Source: Escherichia phage vB_EcoM_JS09. Taken from it: a stretch of DNA of 64,000 nt. Under the pieces are notes generated by a model. The model saw only the letters and a list, made by a program, of their open reading frames with translations, did no database searches and was not told the DNA's origin. Of this stretch, positions 18,606-63,605 are shown in pieces. Each line of letters opens with the position of its first letter. Within the stretch, counting starts at the first letter, position 1. Position numbers and translations under genes: made by a program. The stretch lies in the sequence record NC_024124.2. One strand, written 5' to 3'.

Positions 18606-19079
18606 ATGTTATTATCTGGCAAATTATACAAAGAAGAAAAACAAAAATTTTATGATGCACAGAATGGTAAGTGTCCTATTTGCCACCGTGAATTAGACCC
18701 TGATGTTCAAGGTAACCATCTTGACCACGACCATGAATTAAACGGGCCAAAAGCCGGTAGAGTTCGTGGATTACTCTGTAATCTGTGCAACGCAGCAGAA
18801 GGCCAAATGAAGCATAAGTTCAACCGTTCCGGTCTTAAAGGACGTGATGTCGACTACCTCGAATGGCTTGAAGCTCTTCTTGCTTATTTGAAACAAGATT
18901 ATTCTGATAATAATATCCATCCTAATTTTGTTCCAGACAAAACTAAAGAGTTCTCAAGACTAGGTAAAGAGGAAATGATGGCTGAGATGCTTCAAAGAGG
19001 ATTTGAATATAATGAATCTGATACCAAAACACAATTAATAGCTTCATTCAAAAAGCAGCTTAGAAAGAGTTTAAAATGA
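18606..19079 (+). CDS. 49: Endonuclease VII (Holliday-junction resolvase)
   Basis: MLLSGKLYKEEKQKFYDAQNGKCPICHREL...HLDHDHELNGPKAG matches recalled T4 gp49; TATAAATA upstream. Confidence 0.9.
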   Translation: MLLSGKLYKEEKQKFYDAQNGKCPICHRELDPDVQGNHLDHDHELNGPKAGRVRGLLCNLCNAAEGQMKHKFNRSGLKGRDVDYLEWLEALLAYLKQDYSDNNIHPNFVPDKTKEFSRLGKEEMMAEMLQRGFEYNESDTKTQLIASFKKQLRKSLK

Positions 19080-20893
19080 AAATTGAAAAAGAAATTGAAG
19101 GATTAATTCATAAAACTAATAAAGATCTTTTGAACGAGAATGCTAATAAAGATTCTCGTGTTTTTCCAACTCAACGGGACCTTATGGCTGGTATTGTGTC
19201 TAAGCACATTGCCAAAAATATGGTCCCGTCTTTTATTATGAAAGCACATGAAAGCGGAATTATCCATTTCCATGATATTGATTATTCCCCTGCTCTTCCA
19301 TTTACTAATTGCTGTTTAGTAGATTTAAAAGGAATGCTTGAAAACGGGTTTAAGCTAGGTAATGCTCAAATTGAAACGCCTAAATCGATTGGTGTTGCTA
19401 CTGCAATTATGGCACAAATTACCGCACAGGTTGCTTCACATCAGTACGGCGGAACGACTTTTGCTAATGTAGATAAAGTACTTTCTCCTTATGTTAAACG
19501 CACCTATGCAAAACATATTGAGGATGCAGAAAAATGGCAAATCGCTGATGCGTTGAATTATGCCCAATCTAAAACAGAAAAAGACGTATACGATGCATTT
19601 CAAGCTTATGAGTATGAAGTAAATACTCTTTTTAGCTCAAACGGTCAAACGCCTTTTGTAACAATTACATTTGGTACTGGAACTGACTGGACTGAACGAA
19701 TTATTCAGAAAGCAATTCTTAAAAACCGCATTAAAGGCCTTGGTCGTGATGGAATAACTCCTATTTTCCCTAAACTTGTTATGTTCATTGAAGAGGGTGT
19801 CAATCTTTATAAAGACGACCCGAACTATGATATTAAGCAGCTTGCTCTAGAGTGTGCAAGCAAAAGAATGTATCCTGATATTATTTCAGTTAAGAACAAT
19901 AAAGCTATCACTGGTTCATCTATTCCTGTTTCTCCAATGGGTTGTCGTAGTTTCTTGAGTGTATGGAAAGATTCGACTGGAAATGAAATTCTTGATGGAC
20001 GTAATAATCTTGGTGTTGTAACACTGAATCTTCCTCGTATTGCGTTAGATTCTTATATTGGAACACAATTCAATGAACAGAAATTTGTTGAGCTATTTAA
20101 TGAACGAATGGATCTGTGTTTTGAAGCCTTGATGTGTAGAATTAGTTCTTTAAAGGGTGTTAAAGCAACTGTTGCTCCTATTCTTTACCAAGAAGGTGCA
20201 TTCGGGGTTCGTCTTAAACCTGATGACGATATAATTGAGTTATTTAAAAACGGTAGAAGTTCAGTGTCCTTAGGATACATTGGTATTCACGAATTGAATA
20301 TTCTTGTCGGTCGTGATATTGGACAAGAAATTTTAACTAAAATGAATGCTCATCTTAAGCAGTGGACTGAAAGAACCGGTTTTGCTTTTAGCTTGTATTC
20401 TACTCCTGCTGAAAACCTGTGCTATCGCTTCTGTAAACTTGATACCGAGAAATATGGAAGTGTAAAAGATGTTACTGATAAAGGCTGGTACACTAATAGT
20501 TTCCATGTTTCAGTAGAAGAAAATATCACTCCGTTTGAAAAGATTTCTCGCGAAGCCCCATATCATTTCATTGCGACTGGCGGACATATTTCTTATGTTG
20601 AACTTCCTGATATGAAAAATAACCTAAAAGGTCTTGAGGCTGTATGGGATTATGCTGCACAACATTTAGATTATTTTGGTGTTAATATGCCAGTAGATAA
20701 ATGTTTTACATGTGGAAGTACTCATGAAATGACTCCTACTGAAACCGGATTTGTTTGTTCTATTTGTGGAGAAACTGACCCTAAAAAGATGAACACCATA
20801 AGAAGAACATGCGGTTATCTTGGAAATCCTAACGAACGCGGATTTAATCTCGGCAAAAATAAAGAAATCATGCATAGGGTTAAACACCAATGA
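19076..20893 (+). CDS. nrdD: Anaerobic ribonucleoside-triphosphate reductase
   Basis: 605 aa uninterrupted; C-terminal glycyl-radical and Cys-rich region; matches recalled T4 NrdD. Confidence 0.95.
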   Translation: MKIEKEIEGLIHKTNKDLLNENANKDSRVFPTQRDLMAGIVSKHIAKNMVPSFIMKAHESGIIHFHDIDYSPALPFTNCCLVDLKGMLENGFKLGNAQIETPKSIGVATAIMAQITAQVASHQYGGTTFANVDKVLSPYVKRTYAKHIEDAEKWQIADALNYAQSKTEKDVYDAFQAYEYEVNTLFSSNGQTPFVTITFGTGTDWTERIIQKAILKNRIKGLGRDGITPIFPKLVMFIEEGVNLYKDDPNYDIKQLALECASKRMYPDIISVKNNKAITGSSIPVSPMGCRSFLSVWKDSTGNEILDGRNNLGVVTLNLPRIALDSYIGTQFNEQKFVELFNERMDLCFEALMCRISSLKGVKATVAPILYQEGAFGVRLKPDDDIIELFKNGRSSVSLGYIGIHELNILVGRDIGQEILTKMNAHLKQWTERTGFAFSLYSTPAENLCYRFCKLDTEKYGSVKDVTDKGWYTNSFHVSVEENITPFEKISREAPYHFIATGGHISYVELPDMKNNLKGLEAVWDYAAQHLDYFGVNMPVDKCFTCGSTHEMTPTETGFVCSICGETDPKKMNTIRRTCGYLGNPNERGFNLGKNKEIMHRVKHQ

Positions 20894-21360
20894 ATTATGA
20901 TAGATTTTATCCTTGCGATTTTGTGAATGGCCCTGGTTGCAGGGTCGTTCTTTTCGTTACAGGTTGTTTGCATAAATGCGAAGGGTGTTATAATAAATCA
21001 ACATGGAACGCTAGAAATGGTATTCCATTCACGGGTGAAACACTAGAGCAATTAATTGAATGTTTGAATAATGATTATATAGAAGGATTAACTATAACTG
21101 GAGGAGACCCTCTCTATCCCGATAACAGAGATGTTGTTCATTGCATTGCTCAAACAGTAAAAAATCTTTATCCCAATAAAAGCATTTGGTTGTGGACAGG
21201 ATATAAGTTTGAAGATATTAAACAACTAGAAATGCTTAAATATGTTGATGTTATTATTGATGGGAAGTATGAGAAAAATCTTCCGACTAAAAAGATGTGG
21301 CGAGGATCAGATAATCAGCGACTTTGGTCAAATACCGATGGGGTGTGGAAACATGATTAA
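20890..21360 (+). CDS. nrdG: Anaerobic RNR activating protein (radical SAM)
   Basis: CDFVNGPGCRVVLFVTGCLHKCEGCYN radical-SAM cluster motif; ATGA coupling to nrdD. Confidence 0.9.
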   Translation: MNYDRFYPCDFVNGPGCRVVLFVTGCLHKCEGCYNKSTWNARNGIPFTGETLEQLIECLNNDYIEGLTITGGDPLYPDNRDVVHCIAQTVKNLYPNKSIWLWTGYKFEDIKQLEMLKYVDVIIDGKYEKNLPTKKMWRGSDNQRLWSNTDGVWKHD

Positions 21361-35730: not shown

Positions 35731-36366
35731 ATGAAAACTACTCCTATTACTATCGCTATTGACGCAATCATAAAACAAGCTTCTTCTTTGGCCGCTATGG
35801 CCAAAGTAATTAGTCAAAACCCTGCTCGTTATAATGCTATTCTAGAAACTCTTCGACGCCCTGGACTTAGTAATTATGAAAGTCGTGTAATTATTACAGG
35901 TGTTGGTAAGAACGCTAATATCGCAACTAAAGCTTCTGAGACATTTGCTTCACTCGGTATCCCGAGTATGTACTTGAACACCGGGCATTATTCTCACGGT
36001 GATGCAGGATTCATTGCGCCTAATGATGTGTTGATTCATATTAGTCGTTCTGGTAAAACTGAAGAAATGATAGGCGTGGCTAAGCATCTTAAAACGATTC
36101 GTCCGAACGTCAAACAGATTCTGTTGCATTGTAACCCAGACATTCCACAAGAAAATGAAGCCCTTTTTGATTACTCTTTCTGTACAGGCATCGCAGTAGA
36201 GGTTGATGAGAATTCTCTGGCTCCGACCATGTCCACTACATTGTTGTTAGCGCTTATCGATACTTTTGCTATCAACCTTTCGTCTGAGCGTGGATTTACC
36301 TCTAATGACTTCCTTAAGTTCCACCCTGGCGGTGCACTAGGTGCCATGTTACGAGGCGAACAATGA
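35731..36366 (+). CDS. SIS-domain sugar-phosphate isomerase (arabinose-5-phosphate-isomerase-like, KdsD/GutQ-type)
   Basis: ITGVGKNANIATKASETFASLGIPS...HGDAGFIAPNDVLIHISRSGKTEE...LAPTMSTT...HPGGALGAM mirrors the KdsD/GutQ SIS domain; no CBS domains. Confidence 0.75.
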   Translation: MKTTPITIAIDAIIKQASSLAAMAKVISQNPARYNAILETLRRPGLSNYESRVIITGVGKNANIATKASETFASLGIPSMYLNTGHYSHGDAGFIAPNDVLIHISRSGKTEEMIGVAKHLKTIRPNVKQILLHCNPDIPQENEALFDYSFCTGIAVEVDENSLAPTMSTTLLLALIDTFAINLSSERGFTSNDFLKFHPGGALGAMLRGEQ

Positions 36367-36506
36367 AAGCAATAACAATAGGACTTTTACTATTGATGCT
36401 TGTCATGACTATCTACTGGAGCTTAACGGCTCCAGTAATGATTCCAACACTTGTAATCGGATGGATTATGATTGGACTACAAGCAAAGTATGAATGCTTT
36501 AACTAG
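36363..36506 (+). CDS. Small hydrophobic membrane peptide (47 aa)
   Basis: MKAITIGLLLLMLVMTIYWSL...TLVIGWIMIGL; ATGA overlap with SIS gene; T4 imm lies at this locus. Confidence 0.35.
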   Translation: MKAITIGLLLLMLVMTIYWSLTAPVMIPTLVIGWIMIGLQAKYECFN

Positions 36507-36547
36507 AATAGTGTACAATACTCCTACTTACTAATGAGGACCACAAC

Positions 36548-38233
36548 ATGAAAAAAGCTGTTATTCTTGGTGCTGGACTGGCAACTCGTTTGTATCCAAT
36601 AACGCATCATATTCCTAAGGTGCTTGTTAACTATAAACAAGACACTATTCTGAGCAATTTGTATACAATTTATTCTGACCTTGGTGCAGATGAAATTATT
36701 GTAGTAGTTCATTCAAAATTTGCTGAAACTGTTCGAGCTTATTGTGAGCAAGAAGGGTTCAATGTGACTATTCGTACAGTTGATGAAGCATATGGTTCTG
36801 CTTATGCTCTTGCTAAATTACACAAAGATTTAGACGGCCATAATGTAATTGTTAACTGGTGTGATATTATTCCTGATTTTGGTTCATGGTCTTGGAATGT
36901 TAACGCAATCTATGTTAAGGGTGACGAATGTCGATATAATTTCGACGGTGAAAATATCACTAACGTAGGTTCAACAGGTGGTAATGTTGTAGGAATTTAT
37001 CAGTTCAAAGACTGGGAATTCTATATGGGTTCTACTGATGAGGAAATTCATGAATACTGCAAAGGACGTGATTTCGTAGAATTCCTTTACGGCAGCGCAT
37101 TCAATAAATCAGAGCTTATGAATCTAATTGATTTAGGTGATATGCCTAAACTTGAAAAAGCTCATGAAGTTCGTGAACTTAATCGTAGTTTTAATGCAGT
37201 TGAAATTGGTGAAGAAACTGTAACTAAATTCGCATTAACCGAACAGGGCCGAGCTCTTCAGAAAGATGAGATTTCATGGTATCTTAAAGTGAAATCAGAT
37301 TCAGTTCCTCAGTTAGTTTCTGTTAATGAAAATAACTTTGAAATGGAACGCATTAAAGGTAAGCCGGCATTTGAATATATTAAATCCAAATCGAGTCTTG
37401 CTCGTCCACAAATTGTTGATGCAATTTTAGACGCACTGAAATTCAGCACAGACACTTATTTTGTAAGTCCTGAAACTGTTCGTCGTGATTTCACTAAAGA
37501 ATTCTATACGAAAGTTATTGATCGTTGTGAAAGCATTCAACCATTGATTGATTCATTTGGTAAAATCACACATGTGAACTACACTAAGATTGGACGTCTG
37601 AAGCCAATGTTGAAACAAGCTTTAGAACACCTTATTCGTTATCATAACCGTTCTCAGGGACAGTACTCTGTTATTCATGGCGACCCGAACTTCAGTAATA
37701 CTATGATTACTGATAATGGTGAAGTCAAGTTTATCGACCCTCGCGGATATTTTGGCGAAACCAAGATTTATGGGCCAAAATTGTATGATGAAGCTAAAGT
37801 GCTTTATGCTGTTTCAGGTTATGATGAATTCAACGCTAATCCGACCTGGGGACAGTTTACTATTGATGAAACAACTTGTAATGTGACTATTAACATCAAT
37901 CCATTAGTTTACAAATATGGAAAGATGAGTTCGTTTAACGAGTATCATCATTTGGCTGTAGCAATTATCTGGATTGCATTAGGTGGTTATTTCAAGAATA
38001 ATCCACTTAAAGCGGTAGCCGCATATTATAAAGGTATGGAACTTCTGACTAAGCAATTACGTAACATGGGCCGTGTACTTCAGGACGGCTCTATTAGTTA
38101 TGACGTAGCAGAACCTGTAACGGCTACTCTGATTACAAAAAATCCTGGTAAATGGGTACTAACTGATAAAGAAACTGGTGTTTCCTATCGTCCAATCGGT
38201 GGCGATATCACTCATCAATGGGAACGAATCTAA
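36548..38233 (+). CDS. Bifunctional sugar-1-phosphate nucleotidyltransferase / kinase-like protein
   Basis: N-terminus MKKAVILGAGLATRLYPITHHIPKVLV is NTP-transferase-like; C-terminus VIHGDPNFSNTMITDNGEVKFIDPRGYFG resembles the APH/choline-kinase catalytic loop. Confidence 0.65.
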   Translation: MKKAVILGAGLATRLYPITHHIPKVLVNYKQDTILSNLYTIYSDLGADEIIVVVHSKFAETVRAYCEQEGFNVTIRTVDEAYGSAYALAKLHKDLDGHNVIVNWCDIIPDFGSWSWNVNAIYVKGDECRYNFDGENITNVGSTGGNVVGIYQFKDWEFYMGSTDEEIHEYCKGRDFVEFLYGSAFNKSELMNLIDLGDMPKLEKAHEVRELNRSFNAVEIGEETVTKFALTEQGRALQKDEISWYLKVKSDSVPQLVSVNENNFEMERIKGKPAFEYIKSKSSLARPQIVDAILDALKFSTDTYFVSPETVRRDFTKEFYTKVIDRCESIQPLIDSFGKITHVNYTKIGRLKPMLKQALEHLIRYHNRSQGQYSVIHGDPNFSNTMITDNGEVKFIDPRGYFGETKIYGPKLYDEAKVLYAVSGYDEFNANPTWGQFTIDETTCNVTININPLVYKYGKMSSFNEYHHLAVAIIWIALGGYFKNNPLKAVAAYYKGMELLTKQLRNMGRVLQDGSISYDVAEPVTATLITKNPGKWVLTDKETGVSYRPIGGDITHQWERI

Positions 38234-38619
38234 TGCACCGTGTAGAAAACATGCTTAATCTTTGTTTTGATGTCGATGATTGTATAACAGAGTGGAATAA
38301 CAATCGTGATTACGTGAACTTCAAACCAGACGTCGAAATGGTGACTGCCATTAATGCCCTGTATGATGCAGGGCATACAATAACGCTTTACACTGCTCGC
38401 GGTATGAAGTCAGTCGGTCCTGGTCGTATAGCAATTGACATTCTCCCAAGTCTGATTCAGAACTTGGCAAACATTGGATTGAAGTACCATAATTTGCTAA
38501 CACATAAACCAGTATATGATTGGATTATCGACGACAAAGCTATGCGTCCTGACGAATTCAAAGCTCTTATGAATAAAGGCGAATTCGAAACATTTAAATC
38601 ATATAAACCGAATCTATAA
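38233..38619 (+). CDS. HAD-superfamily phosphatase
   Basis: Motif I LCFDVDDCIT, motif II TLYTARG, motif III K...IIDDKA; TAATG coupling to upstream gene. Confidence 0.6.
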   Translation: MHRVENMLNLCFDVDDCITEWNNNRDYVNFKPDVEMVTAINALYDAGHTITLYTARGMKSVGPGRIAIDILPSLIQNLANIGLKYHNLLTHKPVYDWIIDDKAMRPDEFKALMNKGEFETFKSYKPNL

Positions 38620-38673
38620 TAATTTAAGTAAGACCTGCAAAAACCATCGCAACAATTAACGCGAGATGCAAAA

Positions 38674-39834
38674 ATGAATACCTTTAAAATCGGAACGAAT
38701 TTTGATTTAGCTCTTCTTGATAAAATCGTAGAGCTCAATAAAACTTATCCTAATAGCTTGATAAACGAAGTATACGGCTCTACAAGAGAAATGGCTTTTG
38801 TAGCAGCCAGACCTGATTTTAGGCTTCCTGACGTTGACAAAAAGATGTTAGAAGATTACGTTAAACGTTGTAACGAATTAGGTATTTGCTTTAACTATAC
38901 ACTCAACACGATAAATCCTGGTTCAAAAAGAGAACTAGTTGAGTGGAAGAAGAAAGCTATTCAGGATTATGTTCAGTATCTTTGGTCAATAGGCGTATGG
39001 CGTATTACTATCGCTAACCCTGTTGTTATGGAAATTGTTCGTGAAGTCAATAAAGACATTGAGATTGAAGTTTCAACAATTCTACATGTCGATGCTGTAA
39101 CTCAAATCAAATACTTGCATGACCAGTATAATATCAAAAAGGTCTGCTGTGGAATTCATAAGAACCGTTCAGTTTCTTTCCTGAAGCGTGCAGCAGAGTT
39201 TTGCAATAAGAACAATATAATATTTGAAGTTCTTGTAAATGAGTTCTGTTCTAATGCTGGTAAAGGGTATACAACACATTGTAGCTATCGTGACTCTTGC
39301 TATATTTTCCATAGTACTGATGTTACAGCTGATGATGCTAAATCCTTAAACGGATATCCTATGCAGCACTGTATTAAAGCTCGTGATACAGACCCATTTA
39401 ACTGGTTGAGAACTCGTTTTGTTCGCCCCCAAGATTTGAAACTTTATAATGATATTGGTATCACTCAATTTAAAGTTTCGGGACGTACAGGTAGCACCGA
39501 CTACATTTTGAAAGTTCTTGAAGCTTATGCTTCTGAAAAGTTTGAAGGTAATTTGTTGGAATTGTGGAAGCCTTTAGAGACCATTTTCACTCTTGAAAAT
39601 GAGACAGAGTTTTCACATACAGTAAATATTGAAACCTCTTTGTTAGATGGCTTTTTAGAAAAAAGGTGGTTCAGACATCCAGATTTCGATTGTGCTAATG
39701 AAATCTGCGGGACGACGTGTACATATTGTGAAAGATATTATAAACGTCAATTATCTAAAAACGGGTTAGCAGAAAACTCTATATCTATTATTGATATAAC
39801 TAACTCTGATGACGCTTTGAGGTACCCGGAATGA
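38674..39834 (+). CDS. Peptidase-U32-family protein (UbiU/RlhA/TrhP-like putative Fe-S enzyme)
   Basis: N-terminus IGTNFDLALLDKIV...EVYGSTREMAFVAARPDF, NPVVMEIVREVNKDIEIEVST and Cys cluster EVLVNEFCSNAGKGYTTHCSYRDSCY parallel U32 hallmarks. Confidence 0.6.
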   Translation: MNTFKIGTNFDLALLDKIVELNKTYPNSLINEVYGSTREMAFVAARPDFRLPDVDKKMLEDYVKRCNELGICFNYTLNTINPGSKRELVEWKKKAIQDYVQYLWSIGVWRITIANPVVMEIVREVNKDIEIEVSTILHVDAVTQIKYLHDQYNIKKVCCGIHKNRSVSFLKRAAEFCNKNNIIFEVLVNEFCSNAGKGYTTHCSYRDSCYIFHSTDVTADDAKSLNGYPMQHCIKARDTDPFNWLRTRFVRPQDLKLYNDIGITQFKVSGRTGSTDYILKVLEAYASEKFEGNLLELWKPLETIFTLENETEFSHTVNIETSLLDGFLEKRWFRHPDFDCANEICGTTCTYCERYYKRQLSKNGLAENSISIIDITNSDDALRYPE

Positions 39835-39992
39835 TTTCTAGAAAAACTTTTAACCACCAACTTAACGAAGAGATTTTGACTATGAAACTGAACACTAATG
39901 AACAAATTCTTAAAAAGGCCCTGATGGGCCTGTTTGAAACTAAAGCGGCTAAAGTGATTAAAGAAACCTGTTCAATTGGAATACTACGCTGA
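39831..39992 (+). CDS. Small hypothetical protein (53 aa)
   Basis: ATGA overlap with U32 gene; not in track. Confidence 0.3.
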   Translation: MISRKTFNHQLNEEILTMKLNTNEQILKKALMGLFETKAAKVIKETCSIGILR

Positions 39993-40070
39993 TGCATTTC
40001 TTCATAGTGTTCTTGGAAGTATCGATGCTGAAGCTTTACGTTATATCAACATTGTCAAGAAATTCAAATA

Positions 40071-40094
40071 AGCTTTACGAATTGAGTATATAAT
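40071..40094 (+). promoter_or_regulatory. Middle-promoter-like element upstream of gene 42
   Basis: AGCTTTA, 11-nt spacer, TATAAT. Confidence 0.4.
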
Positions 40095-40113
40095 AAATTG
40101 TATTGAGGTAAAC

Positions 40114-40830
40114 ATGGGAAAACATAACACAATGAAATATATCAAAGCCGCAGATTTTCAAACCGCATTTAAAGCAGTCAATCGTGAAATTTTAGAAAAC
40201 CCGGAATTCGTAACTGATTCTCGTATTGGACGTTGTAATGAAATTGGGTCTATGACAGTAGTTGTTGACACTCCATCATCATTCAAAATGACCGACCCAC
40301 GTATTAACCGCATCTCTTATGAATATGCCGAAGACTTCTGGAAGTTTATGATTTCTGGTGGTACCAACGCAGAAGAAGCGTTTAAGGCATATCCTAATGT
40401 CGCTAAATTTATTTCTAAACCAAAATCAGATGTTTTGCCGGCGAACTTCAACACTTTCTATGGTCCTCGCATTGCGGCCCAATTACCAGCTCTTCTAAAA
40501 GAACTTAAAGAGAAGCCTAACTCCCGAAGAGTTGTGTTCCAAATTCTAGAAAGTTCTGATCAGGCTTTGCTTGATTCAGACGAAACGCTTGAATATCCAT
40601 GTACTGACTCAGTGACTTATTATATTCGTGATGGTAAGCTTTATACCCACTGTCATATGCGTTCTCAGAACTGTGCTGTTGTTATGCAGTTGGATTTTTA
40701 TCTCCAAGGAAAATTACTTCATTATATCGCTAACGAATGTGGTGTAGAAGTTGGTGATTATACTCATACCATGGTAAGTGCCCATGTGTTTGAACGTGAT
40801 TTTGATTATGTTAAAGGATTCCTTGACTAA
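40114..40830 (+). CDS. 42: Thymidylate-synthase-fold pyrimidine hydroxymethylase (dCMP hydroxymethylase-like, divergent)
   Basis: Active-site-like EYPCTD, SRRVVFQI and MRSQNCAVVMQLDF segments; occupies gene 42 position between 43 and uvsX. Confidence 0.65.
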   Translation: MGKHNTMKYIKAADFQTAFKAVNREILENPEFVTDSRIGRCNEIGSMTVVVDTPSSFKMTDPRINRISYEYAEDFWKFMISGGTNAEEAFKAYPNVAKFISKPKSDVLPANFNTFYGPRIAAQLPALLKELKEKPNSRRVVFQILESSDQALLDSDETLEYPCTDSVTYYIRDGKLYTHCHMRSQNCAVVMQLDFYLQGKLLHYIANECGVEVGDYTHTMVSAHVFERDFDYVKGFLD

Positions 40831-41729
40831 TGGCTATTTTCCGCGTACCTATTTTGAGTATGCGGTCTTATGAAACTGGACAGTATGCTATCCTTAAGGA
40901 TGGCAACTTCCAACTTCATTTGCACCGTGCTAATCCAGGTGATGTGATTACATATCCACGTAATGCATCTGATATTAAAGAATGCGAACGTCTTTTTCCG
41001 GAATTTAAGTTTGTTCCATTATGGTATAAAGATAACGCGTATAACACTCGTAAATATTTCTGGTCTGAAAATGAATTTGTGGTTGATTCATTAATTGCTT
41101 ATTATGATTGTGATTTTCTAATCACAGATATCACTGGATATGATGGCGCTTTTGACGTAGAATTCAATTTCAATATCACTGCAGACCCTAATAAACCACG
41201 TTTTTATATTGATGAATTCTTAAAAACCGACATGTTGTCTGTTAATCGTTCACTTCAAACTACTGTGTTGAATGAACGTCAAAAAGAAGTGCTGGTTAAC
41301 GCAGGTGCAGATGGTAATAAGATTATCGTAACACAGAAAGTTATACGTCCTTCCGTCATGCAGCGTCTTGTAGGTGATTTGGCTCCTATTCATCTAGATG
41401 GTATTTTTCATCCATTTCGAATTAGTGACCCATGCTATCGTTTTGAACAAGTGGTTGAATGCGCAATTCAATTAGGTCAACCGCTTTATATAACTGATCC
41501 AAATAATAGTTTCGACAGAAATAAGTATCCTGAAGAAGCGCTGATTCGAATTTTTAATCCAACTAAAACTGAGTACTATCAAATTCTTAAAGGACGTCCG
41601 AAGATTCAATATTTCGAAAATCCTGAAGAAGTATTCCATCCAGGTCTTGGTGAGTTCATCTACTTTAATGCTTTAATTTCTTCGCCGTATAATATACCTA
41701 AATACGAAGATGTCGTAATCGAGGAATAA
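40830..41729 (+). CDS. Hypothetical protein at the T4 beta-glucosyltransferase locus
   Basis: 299 aa; TAATG coupling to gene 42; no resemblance to recalled T4 beta-gt. Confidence 0.5.
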   Translation: MAIFRVPILSMRSYETGQYAILKDGNFQLHLHRANPGDVITYPRNASDIKECERLFPEFKFVPLWYKDNAYNTRKYFWSENEFVVDSLIAYYDCDFLITDITGYDGAFDVEFNFNITADPNKPRFYIDEFLKTDMLSVNRSLQTTVLNERQKEVLVNAGADGNKIIVTQKVIRPSVMQRLVGDLAPIHLDGIFHPFRISDPCYRFEQVVECAIQLGQPLYITDPNNSFDRNKYPEEALIRIFNPTKTEYYQILKGRPKIQYFENPEEVFHPGLGEFIYFNALISSPYNIPKYEDVVIEE

Positions 41730-41730
41730 A

Positions 41731-42279
41731 ATGGCTAAAATTATTTTAGTAGATGGCCCGGATAATGCCGGTAAAACAACTTTCATTAATGACATAATGG
41801 AAATTAGTGAAAGATATGTAAAGATTGATTTCCCTAAACGAACAGTTGATGGACGTTTCGATGTTAAGTCTCGAAATGAAGTTGGCTGTTTCGAAACGAT
41901 GTTGAATTATTTAGACCCTACTAAGATTTATCTGTTAGACCGTGGATATATTAGTAACTGGGTTTATGGACGTATTCGACAAGATGTGGACTCGGTTCTT
42001 GACGTTTATGAACAGGATTATGTTCGTCTTTGCCAAAACCATGATGTGTTCACAATTATTTTAACACGTAACGAAATGACTGAAAGTTTTGAAGACGACC
42101 TTATTACTTTGTCTTCATTCGGTTTTAATACAGTCATTTCATATTTTGAAGAGTTTGCAATTCATAACAAAATCCAAACGTATCAATTACTTAATCATGA
42201 CGGTGCTAACAAAGTTATAGGATTTAATGCAAGCGAACGTAATTATTTGATTACAGAAATTATCAAATGGGCTCGTTAA
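41731..42279 (+). CDS. P-loop kinase-like protein
   Basis: Walker A VDGPDNAGKTT at N-terminus, 182 aa, NMP/sugar-kinase-like size; SD gagga. Confidence 0.5.
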   Translation: MAKIILVDGPDNAGKTTFINDIMEISERYVKIDFPKRTVDGRFDVKSRNEVGCFETMLNYLDPTKIYLLDRGYISNWVYGRIRQDVDSVLDVYEQDYVRLCQNHDVFTIILTRNEMTESFEDDLITLSSFGFNTVISYFEEFAIHNKIQTYQLLNHDGANKVIGFNASERNYLITEIIKWAR

Positions 42280-50266: not shown

Positions 50267-50354
50267 AATATCTCCTTAGTTACCTATTATTTATTACGCT
50301 TTATAAAATTAATGTTAGAATTAACTCTCTTATACTGAATTGAAAGGAAAAATA

Positions 50355-50876
50355 ATGGCACACTTTAACGAATGTTCACAACTTATTTCTGGTGTTGATA
50401 AAGCAGAAGAAGCTTATTTTAATGCTCTGATTCACGAAGATAAAGACCCACTTCAGGTAATGCTTGATATGCAGAAATCTTTACAGGTTCGTTTGGCAAA
50501 TGACAAGCCTGAACATAACAAACATCCTGATGAATTGGCCACTGCAGGCGACGTTGTTGATTGGCTGCGTAATCAGAAAGATTATATTGATGATGAATTC
50601 CGTGAACTGCTGACTTCACTTGGTGGTATGAGCAATGGTGAAAAAGCCGCCAGCAGTGTATGGAAGCCGTGGAAAGCACAACATGCTGAATATCGTAATC
50701 GTCGTATCGATGAACTGTCTCCTGAAGACCAGCTTGAAATTAAATTTGAGATGATTGATATTCTGCACTTCGTTCTGAACATGTTCCAAGGTCTGGGTCT
50801 TTCTGCTGAAGAAATCTTTAAACTTTACTACTTGAAAAACCAACACAACTTTGAACGCCAGGATAATGGTTACTGA
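50355..50876 (+). CDS. 56: dCTP pyrophosphatase gp56
   Basis: MAHFNEC...DKDPLQVMLDMQ...SPEDQLEIKFE...AEEIFKLYYLKN matches recalled T4 gp56. Confidence 0.9.
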   Translation: MAHFNECSQLISGVDKAEEAYFNALIHEDKDPLQVMLDMQKSLQVRLANDKPEHNKHPDELATAGDVVDWLRNQKDYIDDEFRELLTSLGGMSNGEKAASSVWKPWKAQHAEYRNRRIDELSPEDQLEIKFEMIDILHFVLNMFQGLGLSAEEIFKLYYLKNQHNFERQDNGY

Positions 50877-60644: not shown

Positions 60645-62462
60645 ATGATTAAAAATGAAATTAAGGTATTGTCAGATGTAGAACATATTAAGAAACGTAG
60701 TGGCATGTATATTGGTTCTTCGGCCAAAGAAGCCCACGAGCGTTTTTTGTTTGGTAAATATCAACAAGTTGAATATGTTCCTGGTCTGGTTAAATTAATC
60801 GATGAGATTATTGACAACTCGGTTGATGAAGCTATTCGTACATCATTTAAGTTTGCAAATAAAATCGATGTGCAAATTAAAAATAATCAAGTTTCGGTGG
60901 AAGATAACGGACGTGGTATTCCTCAAGGTTTAGTTACCGACCAAACAGGTGAACAAATTCCTGGGCCTGTAGCGGCCTGGACTATTCCAAAGGCTGGTGG
61001 TAACTTTGGTGATGACTCTGAACGCAAGACTGGCGGTATGAACGGCGTCGGGAGTAGTTTAACTAATATCTTCTCTACGTTGTTTACAGGCATAACGTCA
61101 GATGGCGAAAATGAAATCACTGTTAACTGTTCAAACGGAATGGAAAACAAATCGTGGTCTTCTAAGAAATCTAAAGGTAAAGGCACTAAAGTAATCTTCA
61201 CTCCTGATTTCTCTTCATTTGAAGAGCATAATTTATCTCAAATTTATTTAGATATTACTTTAGACCGACTTCAAACATTGGCAGTCGTTTATCCTGATAT
61301 CAAGTTCACATTTAATGGTAAAAAGGTTGATGGTAATTTTAAACGATTTGCTAAACAATTTGGCGAAGATAGCATCATTCAAGAAAATGATAAAGTCTCT
61401 ATAGCATTCACAACATCACCGGACGGCTTCCGTCATTTAACTTATGTGAATAACATCCATACTAAAAATGGTGGTCATCATGTTGAATGTGTAATGGATG
61501 ATATCTGCGAACATCTTTTGCCGGGTATTAAAAAGAAATATAAGGGTATTGAAGTCACTAAAGCTCGTGTTAAAGAATGTCTCACAATGTTGATGTTTAT
61601 TAGAGACATGAGCAACATGCGTTTTGATTCTCAGACTAAAGAACGTTTAACGTCAACGTATGGCGATATTCGTAATCATATCCAATTAGATGCTAAGAAA
61701 ATTGCTCAGGCACTTCTTAAAAACGAAGCCTTGATTATGCCTATTGTTGAAGCAGCATTAGCTCGTAAATTGGCAGCAGAAAAGGCTGCAGAAACTAAAG
61801 CAGCTAAAAAGGCAACTAAAGCTAAGGTTCATAAGCATATTAAAGCTAACCAATGTGGTAAAGATGCAGATACGACATTGTTTTTAACAGAAGGTGATTC
61901 GGCAATTGGTTATCTCATTGATGTTCGTGACCGTGAACTACACGGTGGATTCCCATTACGTGGTAAGGTGATGAATAGCTGGGGTATGTCATATGCCGAT
62001 ATGATGAAGAACAAAGAGCTCTTCGATATCTGTGCTATCACAGGTCTTATTCTTGGTGAAAAGGCAGAGAATACGAACTATCGTAATATTGCAATTATGA
62101 CCGATGCCGATCATGACGGTCTTGGAAGTATCTATCCGGCTTTGCTTGCTTTCTTTAGTAATTGGCCTGAATTGTTTGAACAAGGACGTATTCGCTTTGT
62201 TAAAACGCCTGTAATTATTGCACAAATTGGCAAAACTCAAAAATGGTTTTATACTGTAGCTGAGTATGAAGAAGTTAAAGATACACTGCCTAAGCATAGT
62301 ATTCGATACATCAAGGGATTAGGCTCCCTTGAAAAGTCAGAATATCGTGAAATGATTCAGAACCCTGTGTACGACGTAGTTAAACTTCCTGAAAATTGGA
62401 AAGAACTCTTTGAAATGTTGATGGGTGATGATTCAGAACTTCGTAAAGAATGGATGTCCTAA
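60645..62462 (+). CDS. 39: Type II DNA topoisomerase large (ATPase) subunit, unsplit 39/60 form
   Basis: GHKL ATPase motifs EVIDNSVDE, GRGIP, GGMNGVG; 605 aa without interruption. Confidence 0.9.
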   Translation: MIKNEIKVLSDVEHIKKRSGMYIGSSAKEAHERFLFGKYQQVEYVPGLVKLIDEIIDNSVDEAIRTSFKFANKIDVQIKNNQVSVEDNGRGIPQGLVTDQTGEQIPGPVAAWTIPKAGGNFGDDSERKTGGMNGVGSSLTNIFSTLFTGITSDGENEITVNCSNGMENKSWSSKKSKGKGTKVIFTPDFSSFEEHNLSQIYLDITLDRLQTLAVVYPDIKFTFNGKKVDGNFKRFAKQFGEDSIIQENDKVSIAFTTSPDGFRHLTYVNNIHTKNGGHHVECVMDDICEHLLPGIKKKYKGIEVTKARVKECLTMLMFIRDMSNMRFDSQTKERLTSTYGDIRNHIQLDAKKIAQALLKNEALIMPIVEAALARKLAAEKAAETKAAKKATKAKVHKHIKANQCGKDADTTLFLTEGDSAIGYLIDVRDRELHGGFPLRGKVMNSWGMSYADMMKNKELFDICAITGLILGEKAENTNYRNIAIMTDADHDGLGSIYPALLAFFSNWPELFEQGRIRFVKTPVIIAQIGKTQKWFYTVAEYEEVKDTLPKHSIRYIKGLGSLEKSEYREMIQNPVYDVVKLPENWKELFEMLMGDDSELRKEWMS

Positions 62463-62504: not shown

Positions 62505-63605
62505 ATGAAAGTTATGTTTATCCCATCTCGTGCAGTCCCATTTAATCCTGACCGTGTACAAGGTGGTCTTGAAGCAGTACATTTAAATGTGTTGAAATAT
62601 CTTGTGTCCATCGGTGCTGATATTGATTATATCGGTTTTGATAATGACACATTTGGTGATTGGAAGGTTAATCATCATCCTGTTGGTCATCTGACTAAAT
62701 TCAGTCTAGGTATGAGTTATACTATGGCTCGTAAGATTGTTGAACTAGCCGGCATCCATGAATACGATTTTGTTGTTACTATGGAACCGACTAAACTAAC
62801 CGTTCAGGCAATTAAAGACGCAGGTCTCTCTAAAGTTCATAAGAATTTTATGGCAACACCATTTGAACCGGTATCTCGTGGCATTGTTCAAATTTGGGAC
62901 CAGACTATTCAAATTCATAAGAATGGTGGTAAGAGTTATGCTCCTACTAAAGCCTTCCGTGAATTTGAACGCAAATATTGTTATATGACTTCAGGTTTGA
63001 CTGACAAAATTGATTACGATTATTGGCGAGCAAATCCGTTGTTTGAAGCCGAAGATTATCCGGTTATTTGTTTGAATGAGAAACCTGAAGTTCTTCCGGC
63101 GACGGATCTGATTATTAGTGCACAACGTTATGACACTAAAATGCGTCGTACTGATGTTGCTCTTGAAGCGATTAAAGCACTAGGCGAAAATGGTGCAGGA
63201 TACTGTCCAAGCAAATGGGCGCCACCAGCTAAATATCCTGTTATTATTGATGCTCCACACAGTGAAATCATGGAACGTCTTAAAACAGCTAAAGCACTTA
63301 TTAATACGTGTCCTGACACAGGTACGGTAGAGAATAGTTCTATTGAAGCCATCTCTAAAGGTGTCCCTGTAATCCAGTTAGTTTTTAAGGATTATCCTCA
63401 TGCGACATTTGAATACGACCCAGATACTGTGCGTGTAGAAATTGATTCCTCTACTCCTAAGAAAGAAGTAGTTGCGCTTTACACAAAAGCTGTATTAGAA
63501 TTCACTGACACATACGAAGCTCGAGTTAAACGTGCTGAAGCAGTATGGAAGAAGTATAATCGAGATGCAGTTGTTGCGATGTGGGATAAAATCTTCACAG
63601 CGTAA
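62505..63605 (+). CDS. GT-B-fold glycosyltransferase-like protein (candidate DNA sugar transferase)
   Basis: N-terminal MKVMFIPS...GGLEAV and C-terminal TVENSSIEAISKGVPVIQL resemble GT-B donor-binding motifs; lies where T4 carries gene 60/mobA. Confidence 0.55.
   Translation: MKVMFIPSRAVPFNPDRVQGGLEAVHLNVLKYLVSIGADIDYIGFDNDTFGDWKVNHHPVGHLTKFSLGMSYTMARKIVELAGIHEYDFVVTMEPTKLTVQAIKDAGLSKVHKNFMATPFEPVSRGIVQIWDQTIQIHKNGGKSYAPTKAFREFERKYCYMTSGLTDKIDYDYWRANPLFEAEDYPVICLNEKPEVLPATDLIISAQRYDTKMRRTDVALEAIKALGENGAGYCPSKWAPPAKYPVIIDAPHSEIMERLKTAKALINTCPDTGTVENSSIEAISKGVPVIQLVFKDYPHATFEYDPDTVRVEIDSSTPKKEVVALYTKAVLEFTDTYEARVKRAEAVWKKYNRDAVVAMWDKIFTA

Follow-up and report, generated by a model that had tools for sequence, protein, structure and literature searches.

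Four U32 proteins of Escherichia coli have been characterized. RlhA (YdcP), the 23S rRNA 5-hydroxycytidine-2501 synthase, hydroxylates cytosine at C5 and needs prephenate and Fe-S biogenesis (PMC5727448); it has 653 amino acids (aa), contains the DUF3656 domain and two distal essential cysteines (Cys580 and Cys611), and acts on a ribosome assembly intermediate. UbiU and UbiV (anaerobic ubiquinone hydroxylation) and TrhP (tRNA ho5U34) are O2-independent Fe-S proteins. Their substrates are a polyprenyl phenol or tRNA, and UbiU/V is a heterodimer needing UbiT. Prephenate is genetically required for TrhP, and UbiU/V and TrhP each duplicate an O2-dependent enzyme (PMC10990095, PMC11574389). 5-Hydroxycytosine (5hoC) is also found in phages: the DNA of phage RB69 contains arabosylated 5hoC, not arabinosyl-hydroxymethylcytosine (hmC) (PMC13326640, NAR, 2026). 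The thymidylate synthase (TS) homologue gp48 of this phage makes 5-hydroxy-dCMP (5hodCMP) with flavin, and the oxygen comes from O2, as determined by 18O2 labelling (PMC13326640). A U32-family gene lies in a cluster of the same type at positions 38674..39834 of a 64,000-nucleotide stretch of Escherichia phage vB_EcoM_JS09 (NC_024124.2), hereafter the window. It is proposed here, with a probability of about 0.6, that its product (U32 below) hydroxylates the C5 position of cytosine in a deoxynucleotide (probably dCMP) by a reaction that needs prephenate but not O2.

The phage protein belongs to the same fold family as RlhA and shares with it a local 'C-Y-I-x-H' motif, two essential cysteines of the U32 motif and a counterpart of E161; C5 hydroxylation of cytosine is the chemistry proposed for it. 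It differs from RlhA in having a C-x4-C-x3-C-x2-C tail of its own and a setting among deoxynucleotide and DNA-glycosylation genes. Like UbiU/UbiV and TrhP, it would be an O2-independent Fe-S protein; to our knowledge, none of these three is encoded beside a chorismate mutase (CM) in a virus. The gp48-type 5hodCMP synthases (RB69 gp48, DLP3 gp80 and the HY126 homologue) form the product proposed for U32 and are encoded in the same operon-like block, but they have the unrelated TS fold, use FMN and take their oxygen from O2. Their activity is experimental, whereas the reaction, substrate level, prephenate use and anaerobic role of U32 are inferred from comparative genomics. The NrdAB/NrdDG enzymes of phage T4 are a precedent for an O2-dependent and an O2-independent enzyme serving one DNA-precursor step. 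They are a conceptual analogue only, with a different reaction and different protein families from those of U32 and gp48.

The U32 protein and its cysteines

The gene and its two cysteine-rich regions were located as follows.

38674..39834, + strand: U32-family protein of 386 aa, orthologue of RB69 gp50
39241..39372, + strand: core Fe-S candidate region, E190 plus C192, C203, C209 and C233 (C-x10-C-x5-C-x23-C); codon coordinates verified
39691..39729, + strand: C-terminal Cys cluster C340-x4-C345-x3-C349-x2-C352; invariant in 32/32 lineages, coordinates verified

The initial annotation described this protein as a U32-family, putative Fe-S enzyme in the DNA-modification cassette of a T-even-like phage. 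Profile, fold and Cys conservation all back this description. The PF01136 profile, which had been suggested as a check, matched significantly (E=7.3e-11, 42.2 bits; gathering cut-off 22.4), and PF01136 is already annotated on homologues. The protein was found to have the fold of a TIM barrel, which also resembles sugar-phosphate enzymes, though less closely, and the gene is under purifying selection. By profile and fold, the product is assigned to the U32 superfamily. Direct support exists for the family, the fold, the conserved cysteines and the purifying selection, and also for the gene linkages described below.

The NCBIfam UbiU model scored 18.5 bits against the protein (cut-off 440), the TrhP and UbiV models gave no match to it, and no DUF3656 was detected in its 386 aa by a Pfam scan. 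Judged from these comparisons, it is a relative of RlhA and an orthologue of none of RlhA, TrhP, UbiU and UbiV. With its homologues it apparently forms a separate, virus-borne clade having its own C-terminal Cys cluster. Searches of PDB sequences returned noise only, whether the query was the single sequence or the clade profile. Mk0906 (PDB 5D88), a U32 'peptidase' domain structure, is 14% identical and lacks the C-terminal Cys-rich extension of the phage clade.

In a first alignment of 40 homologues (46-87% identity), 10 cysteines were invariant. The alignment was then widened to one representative for each of 32 lineages, down to 40% identity. E190, C192, C203, C209 and C233 were invariant in 32/32 representatives, as were C340, C345, C349 and C352, and C158 and C177 were kept in 31/32. 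The core set is a candidate for ligation of a [4Fe-4S] cluster. The C-terminal cluster C340-C352, which had not been picked up in the initial annotation, is plausibly a second Fe-S or metal site. A radical SAM assignment of C345-x3-C349-x2-C352 was rejected: no PF04055 match was obtained at E<=0.1, and the motif follows the barrel, in the C-terminal tail.

The clade profile was compared with the four E. coli paralogues using hhalign. RlhA was the best match of the four (probability 80.5%, E=1.3e-5, 203 columns), over RlhA residues 46-258 only. Phage C203/C209 were aligned with RlhA C169/C176, and E190 with RlhA E161; these RlhA residues are essential or important according to Kimura et al. (PMC5727448).

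The region is 98% identical at the DNA level to ~150 Mosigvirus genomes (RB69, ST0, HY126 and others), in which the U32 gene is labelled 'peptidase', 'peptidase family U32' or 'hypothetical'. In the records of the BASEL phages it is a 'putative enzyme involved in UDP-arabinose biosynthesis'. RB69 gp50 appears in PMC13326640 in Table 1 only, as a 'sugar or heterocycle reductase' with a match to 5D88. The words U32, peptidase, hydroxylase and prephenate are absent from the text of that paper, and its Discussion names the RlhA and TrhP routes of pyrimidine hydroxylation with no tie to gp50. The U32 gene is likewise not discussed in the papers on the Durham Collection and Thanatos or in the original RB69 paper.

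Genes linked to phage U32

Enterobacter phage Entb_45 has an annotated CM gene between U32 and the TS homologue. It matched Pfam CM_2 (40.9 bits, cut-off 27) and many NCBIfam CM models. A tblastn search with this protein returned 56 records among 50,697 phage genomes, 55 of them Straboviridae of Klebsiella, Serratia, Yersinia, Enterobacter, Edwardsiella, Erwinia, Pectobacterium, Proteus, Providencia, Morganella, Kosakonia, Shewanella and E. coli (EcS1). In these 55 records the CM adjoins U32 and/or the TS homologue (inspected directly in a subset). In Shewanella phage Thanatos-1 the order is rearranged to TS-glycosyltransferase (GT)-kinase-U32-CM, and U32 and CM are still neighbours. The 56th record (H137, a faecal contig) was discarded: the CM lies in a PheA-like fusion protein of 373 aa, and the contig looks bacterial and has no U32.

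Homologues of 40-58% identity to U32 were found in metagenomic viral contigs only, and all 220 matches in the cultured-phage database were at least 80% identical and T4-like. In total, 53 U32 loci (individual loci are given L numbers) were grouped at 90% U32 identity into 33 lineages, 3 of them T4-like and 30 divergent; 28 of the divergent lineages had usable flanks. A CM or DAHP synthase gene lies beside U32 in 8 of these 28 de-replicated lineages. DAHP synthase-CM fusions are directly upstream of U32 in L047, L048/L050 and L051, and the fusion of L061 overlaps the U32 end. Standalone CM_2 genes abut U32 in L053 and in the L055 group, and DAHP synthase alone is beside U32 in L005 and L036. 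The DAHP_synth_1 matches were not retained as KDO8P synthases, because NCBIfam DAHP synthase models scored three to four times higher. The fusions (L047:8399-9430, L050:7290-8354, L051:8323-9384 and L061:11076-12194) have a C-terminal CM_2 and are carried by low-GC viral contigs; they have the appearance of a viral auxiliary module of shikimate metabolism.

CM produces prephenate, which has been demonstrated to donate the oxygen in UbiU/V hydroxylation (PMC10990095) and is required genetically by RlhA, the CM domain alone rescuing the modification (PMC5727448). No function other than prephenate supply was found to explain shikimate genes beside phage U32. A 168-kb genome at 37% G+C contains ~62,000 cytosines. 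With a T-even burst of the order of 100, several million donor molecules would therefore be needed per infected cell. Given this demand, a dedicated prephenate-supply enzyme is plausible.

The neighbours of U32 were counted on the same strand, within 6 kb, in the 28 divergent lineages.

21/28: protein cluster including homologues of arabinosyltransferase 1
12/28: AfhE-like enzyme
10/28: KdsC-type HAD phosphatase
10/28: Tmk-like kinase
9/28: arabinose-5-phosphate (A5P) isomerase
6/28: dUTPase_2-like protein
4/28: dCMP deaminase

Typical orders are kinase-GT-U32 (L007, L008) and GT-A5P isomerase-AfhE-U32-DAHP synthase (L005). No TS-family gene was found within +/-10 kb of a divergent U32 except in L038, where the TS scored 243 bits with PF00303, like canonical ThyA; the window hydroxylase scored 57 bits. 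Within the flanks examined, homologous GTs are thus paired, depending on the phage, with the TS-type hydroxylase, with U32 or, in enterobacterial T4-like phages, with both. The acceptor of the RB69 arabinosyltransferase is the 5-OH of cytosine.

All components of the RB69 gp45-gp55-type arabinosyl-5-hydroxycytosine cluster were found in the window, collinear, at 35731..42279. The genes of this block, besides U32, are as follows.

35731..36366, + strand: A5P isomerase (KdsD/KpsF-like); TIGR00393 E=1.4e-32, SIS domain
36548..38233, + strand: AfhE-like bifunctional sugar kinase/nucleotidyltransferase, which makes UDP-arabinofuranose; N-terminal NTP_transferase and kinase-like C-terminal domain (PMC13326640)
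38218..38619, + strand: HAD phosphatase, AfhF-like (Araf-1,5-P2 to Araf-1-P); TIGR01689 E=4.6e-13, role according to PMC13326640
39831..40071, + strand: small gene of the gp49 family, orthologue of RB69 ORF049c; family HMM E=1.9e-16, alignment with RB69 and HY126
40114..40830, + strand: TS homologue, flavin- and O2-dependent 5hodCMP synthase, RB69 gp48 orthologue; PF00303 56.9 bits
40830..41729, + strand: DNA arabinosyltransferase 1, RB69 gp46:47 orthologue; phrog_3891 (PMC13326640, Table 1)
41731..42279, + strand: thymidylate-kinase-like (Tmk-like) nucleotide kinase, RB69 gp45 orthologue; phrog_761 (PMC13326640, Table 1)

The TS homologue had been taken for the dCMP hydroxymethylase in the initial annotation. 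Since 236/238 of its residues are identical to those of RB69 gp48, it is corrected here to an O2-dependent 5hodCMP synthase.

The start of gp49 overlaps the stop of U32 (ATGA). Proteins of the gp49 family have ~57-79 aa and the motif YYxDAFxHSxxGxIxxExxRHI, with no Pfam match, and the gene always directly follows U32 in Mosigvirus, Tegunavirus, PM2 and Serratia phage 92A1. Further members were found at L015:2658-2897, L017:2772-2969, L018:2768-2992 and L019:2825-2998. The protein could be an accessory factor of U32. Its identity as a degenerate CM was rejected: no CM_2 match was obtained even with the two frames spliced, the gp49 family and the phage CM family gave an hhalign probability of 0.2%, and both genes are present, next to each other, in TG1, 92A1 and PM2.

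Several other arrangements were noted around U32 in uncultivated phages. L003:7983-14360 and L004 (86-kb and 24-kb contigs) combine U32 with an NT5C 5'-deoxynucleotidase, an NMN transporter, a deoxynucleoside kinase (dNK), a radical SAM/SPASM protein, a nucleoside 2-deoxyribosyltransferase and a very divergent second U32-like paralogue (377 aa, PF01136 21.7 bits). This cluster may be a different nucleoside-level modification pathway, or the two U32 proteins may be a UbiU/UbiV-like pair. Radical SAM genes within a few kb of U32 were seen in unrelated metagenomic phages (L002:1-249, L003:12160-13185 and L008:4980-6011), with a SPASM domain in L002 and L003 and none in L008. A dCMP deaminase gene is directly upstream of U32 in two Pol III-alpha phages, at L002:7447-8004 (overlapping) and L006:6504-6929; the substrate in these phages may therefore be dUMP instead of dCMP, with 5-hydroxyuracil as the outcome. 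At L054:5237-7054, and also in L045, L060 and L066, fusions of ~600 aa join an arabinosyltransferase-1-like protein to a C-terminal dTMP-kinase-like domain. L007:4777-13179 contains a Gly_transf_sug GT, a Tmk-like kinase, an arabinosyltransferase-1-like GT, U32, a TAGT-like GT, a dUTPase/DCD protein and a UDP-galactopyranose mutase, which suggests a multi-sugar (galactofuranose?) modification of a 5-hydroxypyrimidine.

Proposed function and competing explanations

According to the model for U32 proteins (PMC10990095), U32 would oxidize the base by two electrons, which the Fe-S clusters would relay to an acceptor. The oxidized base would then be quenched by hydroxide from the decarboxylation of prephenate, with phenylpyruvate and CO2 as by-products. 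The resulting 5hodCMP would join the gp48 route, i.e. phosphorylation, incorporation by the phage polymerase and arabinosylation on DNA. In enterobacterial T4-like phages, U32 would be the anaerobic twin of the O2-dependent 5hodCMP synthase encoded two genes downstream, a pairing analogous to UbiU/V with UbiI/H/F, TrhP with TrhO and T4 NrdDG with NrdAB. It would be the sole hydroxylase of many uncultivated phages. Phage DAHP synthase-CM fusions would redirect the host shikimate pathway and supply ~6x10^4 oxygen-donor molecules per genome copy. The odds are about even that the window U32 is the founding member of a virus-borne clade filling both roles by hydroxylating DNA precursors with prephenate oxygen, and so the first U32 enzyme to act on a deoxynucleotide.

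U32 is dispensable for sugar-donor synthesis, sugar transfer and aerobic hydroxylation, as indicated by three sets of data. In Acinetobacter phage Konradin and Pseudomonas phage PspYZU05, the syntenic clusters run from phosphatase to TS with no U32 or CM, and Acinetobacter phage DLP3, which has the same architecture, contains tri-arabinosyl-5hoC (PMC13326640). UDP-arabinose is made from A5P by AfhE and AfhF alone according to He et al., as reported in PMC13326640. Finally, gp48 plus a dNMP kinase suffices for 5-hydroxydeoxycytidine (5hodC) in the DNA of aerobic E. coli (PMC13326640). The initial annotation left open whether the sugar donor, the base or a host RNA is modified. The evidence favours the base, because 5hoC is made by an O2-dependent enzyme, CM and DAHP synthase genes are linked to U32, and in other phages U32 replaces the TS-type hydroxylase beside homologous GTs; sugar and RNA are less favoured.

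Several observations weigh against the proposed reaction. Mosigvirus, the genus of the window, has no CM. In the window, gp49 is frameshifted by an extra A at 39964-39966, and it has two indels in HY126; it is intact in most Mosigviruses. The canonical CX6CX15CX3C of RlhA and TrhP is absent, and the phage clade has C-x10-C-x5-C-x23-C. UbiU and UbiV are also off the canonical spacing (UbiU C169, C176, C193 and C232); displaced Cys ligands therefore have a precedent in the family, of which the canonical spacing is typical, not defining. Just two phage cysteines align with RlhA, and hhalign probabilities are low against UbiU, UbiV and TrhP (5%, 0.4% and 8.6%). The divergent contigs were seen over +/-6 to 10 kb around U32, so a TS-type hydroxylase could lie elsewhere in these genomes. 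E. coli Dhakavirus Bp7 (L012) has a TS-type cluster without U32, so phages of facultative anaerobes can do without U32. In the same Bp7 stretch there was no CM, and no annotated A5P isomerase was seen. Bp7 offers a natural comparison where dependence on oxygen is concerned. Direct hydroxylase activity of UbiU/V, RlhA and TrhP has not been reconstituted in vitro (PMC10990095).

The competing explanation that survives best, although unlikely, is hydroxylation by U32 of cytosine within polymerized phage DNA instead of on the free nucleotide. All characterized U32 enzymes of nucleic acids, including RlhA, the closest paralogue, act on polynucleotides, and U32 adjoins DNA glycosyltransferases. However, the phage encodes a dCTPase, which would leave little dCTP to be polymerized without the hydroxylated nucleotide. 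The recurrent neighbours of U32 are mononucleotide enzymes (Tmk-like kinases, dCMP deaminase, dUTPase_2-like proteins, NT5C and dNK), and U32 is devoid of the additional RNA-binding C-terminal domain (DUF3656) of RlhA.

It is improbable that U32 acts on arabinose or the NDP-sugar in the sugar pathway, whether by reducing, epimerizing or otherwise modifying it. Such a role would match Table 1 of PMC13326640 and the BASEL labels. The position of U32 between the phosphatase and the TS homologue, within the block of sugar genes, would also fit, as would the resemblance of its barrel to sugar-phosphate enzymes and the AfhE-like and A5P isomerase genes of 12/28 and 9/28 divergent lineages. Against this, AfhE and AfhF are reportedly enough for UDP-arabinofuranose from A5P, and U32 is missing from Acinetobacter and Pseudomonas phages that share these sugar genes, DLP3 still arabinosylating its DNA. 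L007, L008 and other lineages have U32 and a GT with neither A5P isomerase nor AfhE, and the CM/DAHP synthase linkage and the dCMP deaminase and kinase neighbours would be left unexplained.

Slightly less probable still is a TrhP/RlhA-like RNA hydroxylase that acts on host or phage tRNA or rRNA (ho5U34, ho5C2501) and tunes translation. In favour of this, RNA is the substrate of the characterized relatives, whose need for prephenate would also account for the CM linkage, and RlhA is the best E. coli match. Yet E. coli already has RlhA and TrhP. In >30 lineages, the genes that U32 is embedded among and co-varies with serve DNA modification or deoxynucleotide metabolism, not tRNA or the ribosome, and its domain architecture (386 aa, no DUF3656, an extra 4-Cys tail) is unlike that of RlhA or TrhP.

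There is little likelihood that U32 is a redox partner of gp48, for example an Fe-S flavin reductase supplying reduced FMN. Gp48, which holds FMN loosely, would require a reductant (PMC13326640), two candidate Fe-S sites are present in U32, and the two genes are described as adjacent in T4-like phages. Nevertheless, 5hodC is obtained in E. coli DNA with gp48 and a dNMP kinase, phages with gp48 homologues often have no U32, and most members of the U32 clade have no TS homologue nearby; this role would also leave the CM/DAHP synthase linkage unexplained. A true peptidase or collagenase, as in the database name, is very improbable. It would fit just the name given historically to the family and a few collagenolytic U32 proteins on record (PrtC, HP0169), as cited in PMC5727448. 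No mechanism of catalysis is known for U32 'peptidases', the residues that are invariant form Cys clusters typical of Fe-S sites, and the context is that of a cytoplasmic protein among nucleotide and DNA-modification genes at an early-gene-like location.

Oxygen context and implications

Three further features of the window were located as follows.

about 50325..50873, + strand: dCTPase (T4 gp56-like); phmmer E=3.4e-84 to Bp7 dCTPase
19076..21357, + strand: anaerobic ribonucleotide reductase NrdD and NrdG-like activase; PF13597 NRDD 569.9 bits, Gly_radical
62505..63605, + strand: second DNA arabinosyltransferase, RB69 gp3-like; tblastn 98-100% identical in Mosigviruses

As the dCTPase removes dCTP, replication of the phage depends on 5-hydroxy-dCTP (5hodCTP). 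The NrdG-like ORF (20884..21357) is downstream of NrdD and has a Cys-rich, activase-like N-terminus. NrdDG is the classic anaerobic duplicate of NrdAB in T-even phages. From its NrdD/NrdG genes, the phage is predicted to be equipped to replicate without O2. The second arabinosyltransferase gene follows the topoisomerase gene (60645-62462) and is labelled 'putative hmC-arabinosyltransferase' in Bas47; GTs ~43% identical to its product are found in Acinetobacter phages, two per genome.

All U32-carrying phage records among the matches listed have Enterobacterales or Shewanella hosts. These hosts are facultative anaerobes. For the TS homologue, the matches listed include at least 57 Acinetobacter and at least 20 Rhizobium phage records, and also Agrobacterium and Pseudomonas phages. 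A two-way rule, by which phages of facultative anaerobes carry U32, was broken by Bp7, and the one-way statement was kept. The distribution of NrdD was set aside as a proxy of niche and is indirectly informative: Acinetobacter is absent among the matches listed, though at least 57 of its phages carry the TS homologue.

The existence of the gene and its family label were already public, so the view of the initial annotation that there was 'no obvious precedent' was overstated as to the presence of the gene. As to function, it holds for the literature that could be searched, in which the functional reading, the CM/DAHP synthase linkage and the substitution of U32 for the TS-type enzyme were not found.

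If the proposed function is correct, it would explain how phages that destroy dCTP, have only 5hoC derivatives in their DNA and rely on O2 for the one cytosine hydroxylase known in them can replicate in the anoxic gut. Prephenate-dependent U32 hydroxylation, described for quinones and RNA, would then also cover DNA precursors and occur in viruses, and the phage CM and DAHP synthase would represent a viral takeover of the shikimate pathway. The U32 hydroxylases have resisted reconstitution in vitro in part because their known substrates are membrane lipids or large RNAs, and a soluble U32 enzyme of 386 aa with dCMP as its substrate would be ideally suited to studies of the mechanism. U32 together with a GT, with or without CM, would be a genomic marker for glycosylated 5-hydroxypyrimidine DNA in uncultivated phages without TS-type enzymes. 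The proposed function would also predict that growth and DNA modification are oxygen-dependent in therapeutic coliphages that have no U32, such as the Dhakaviruses.

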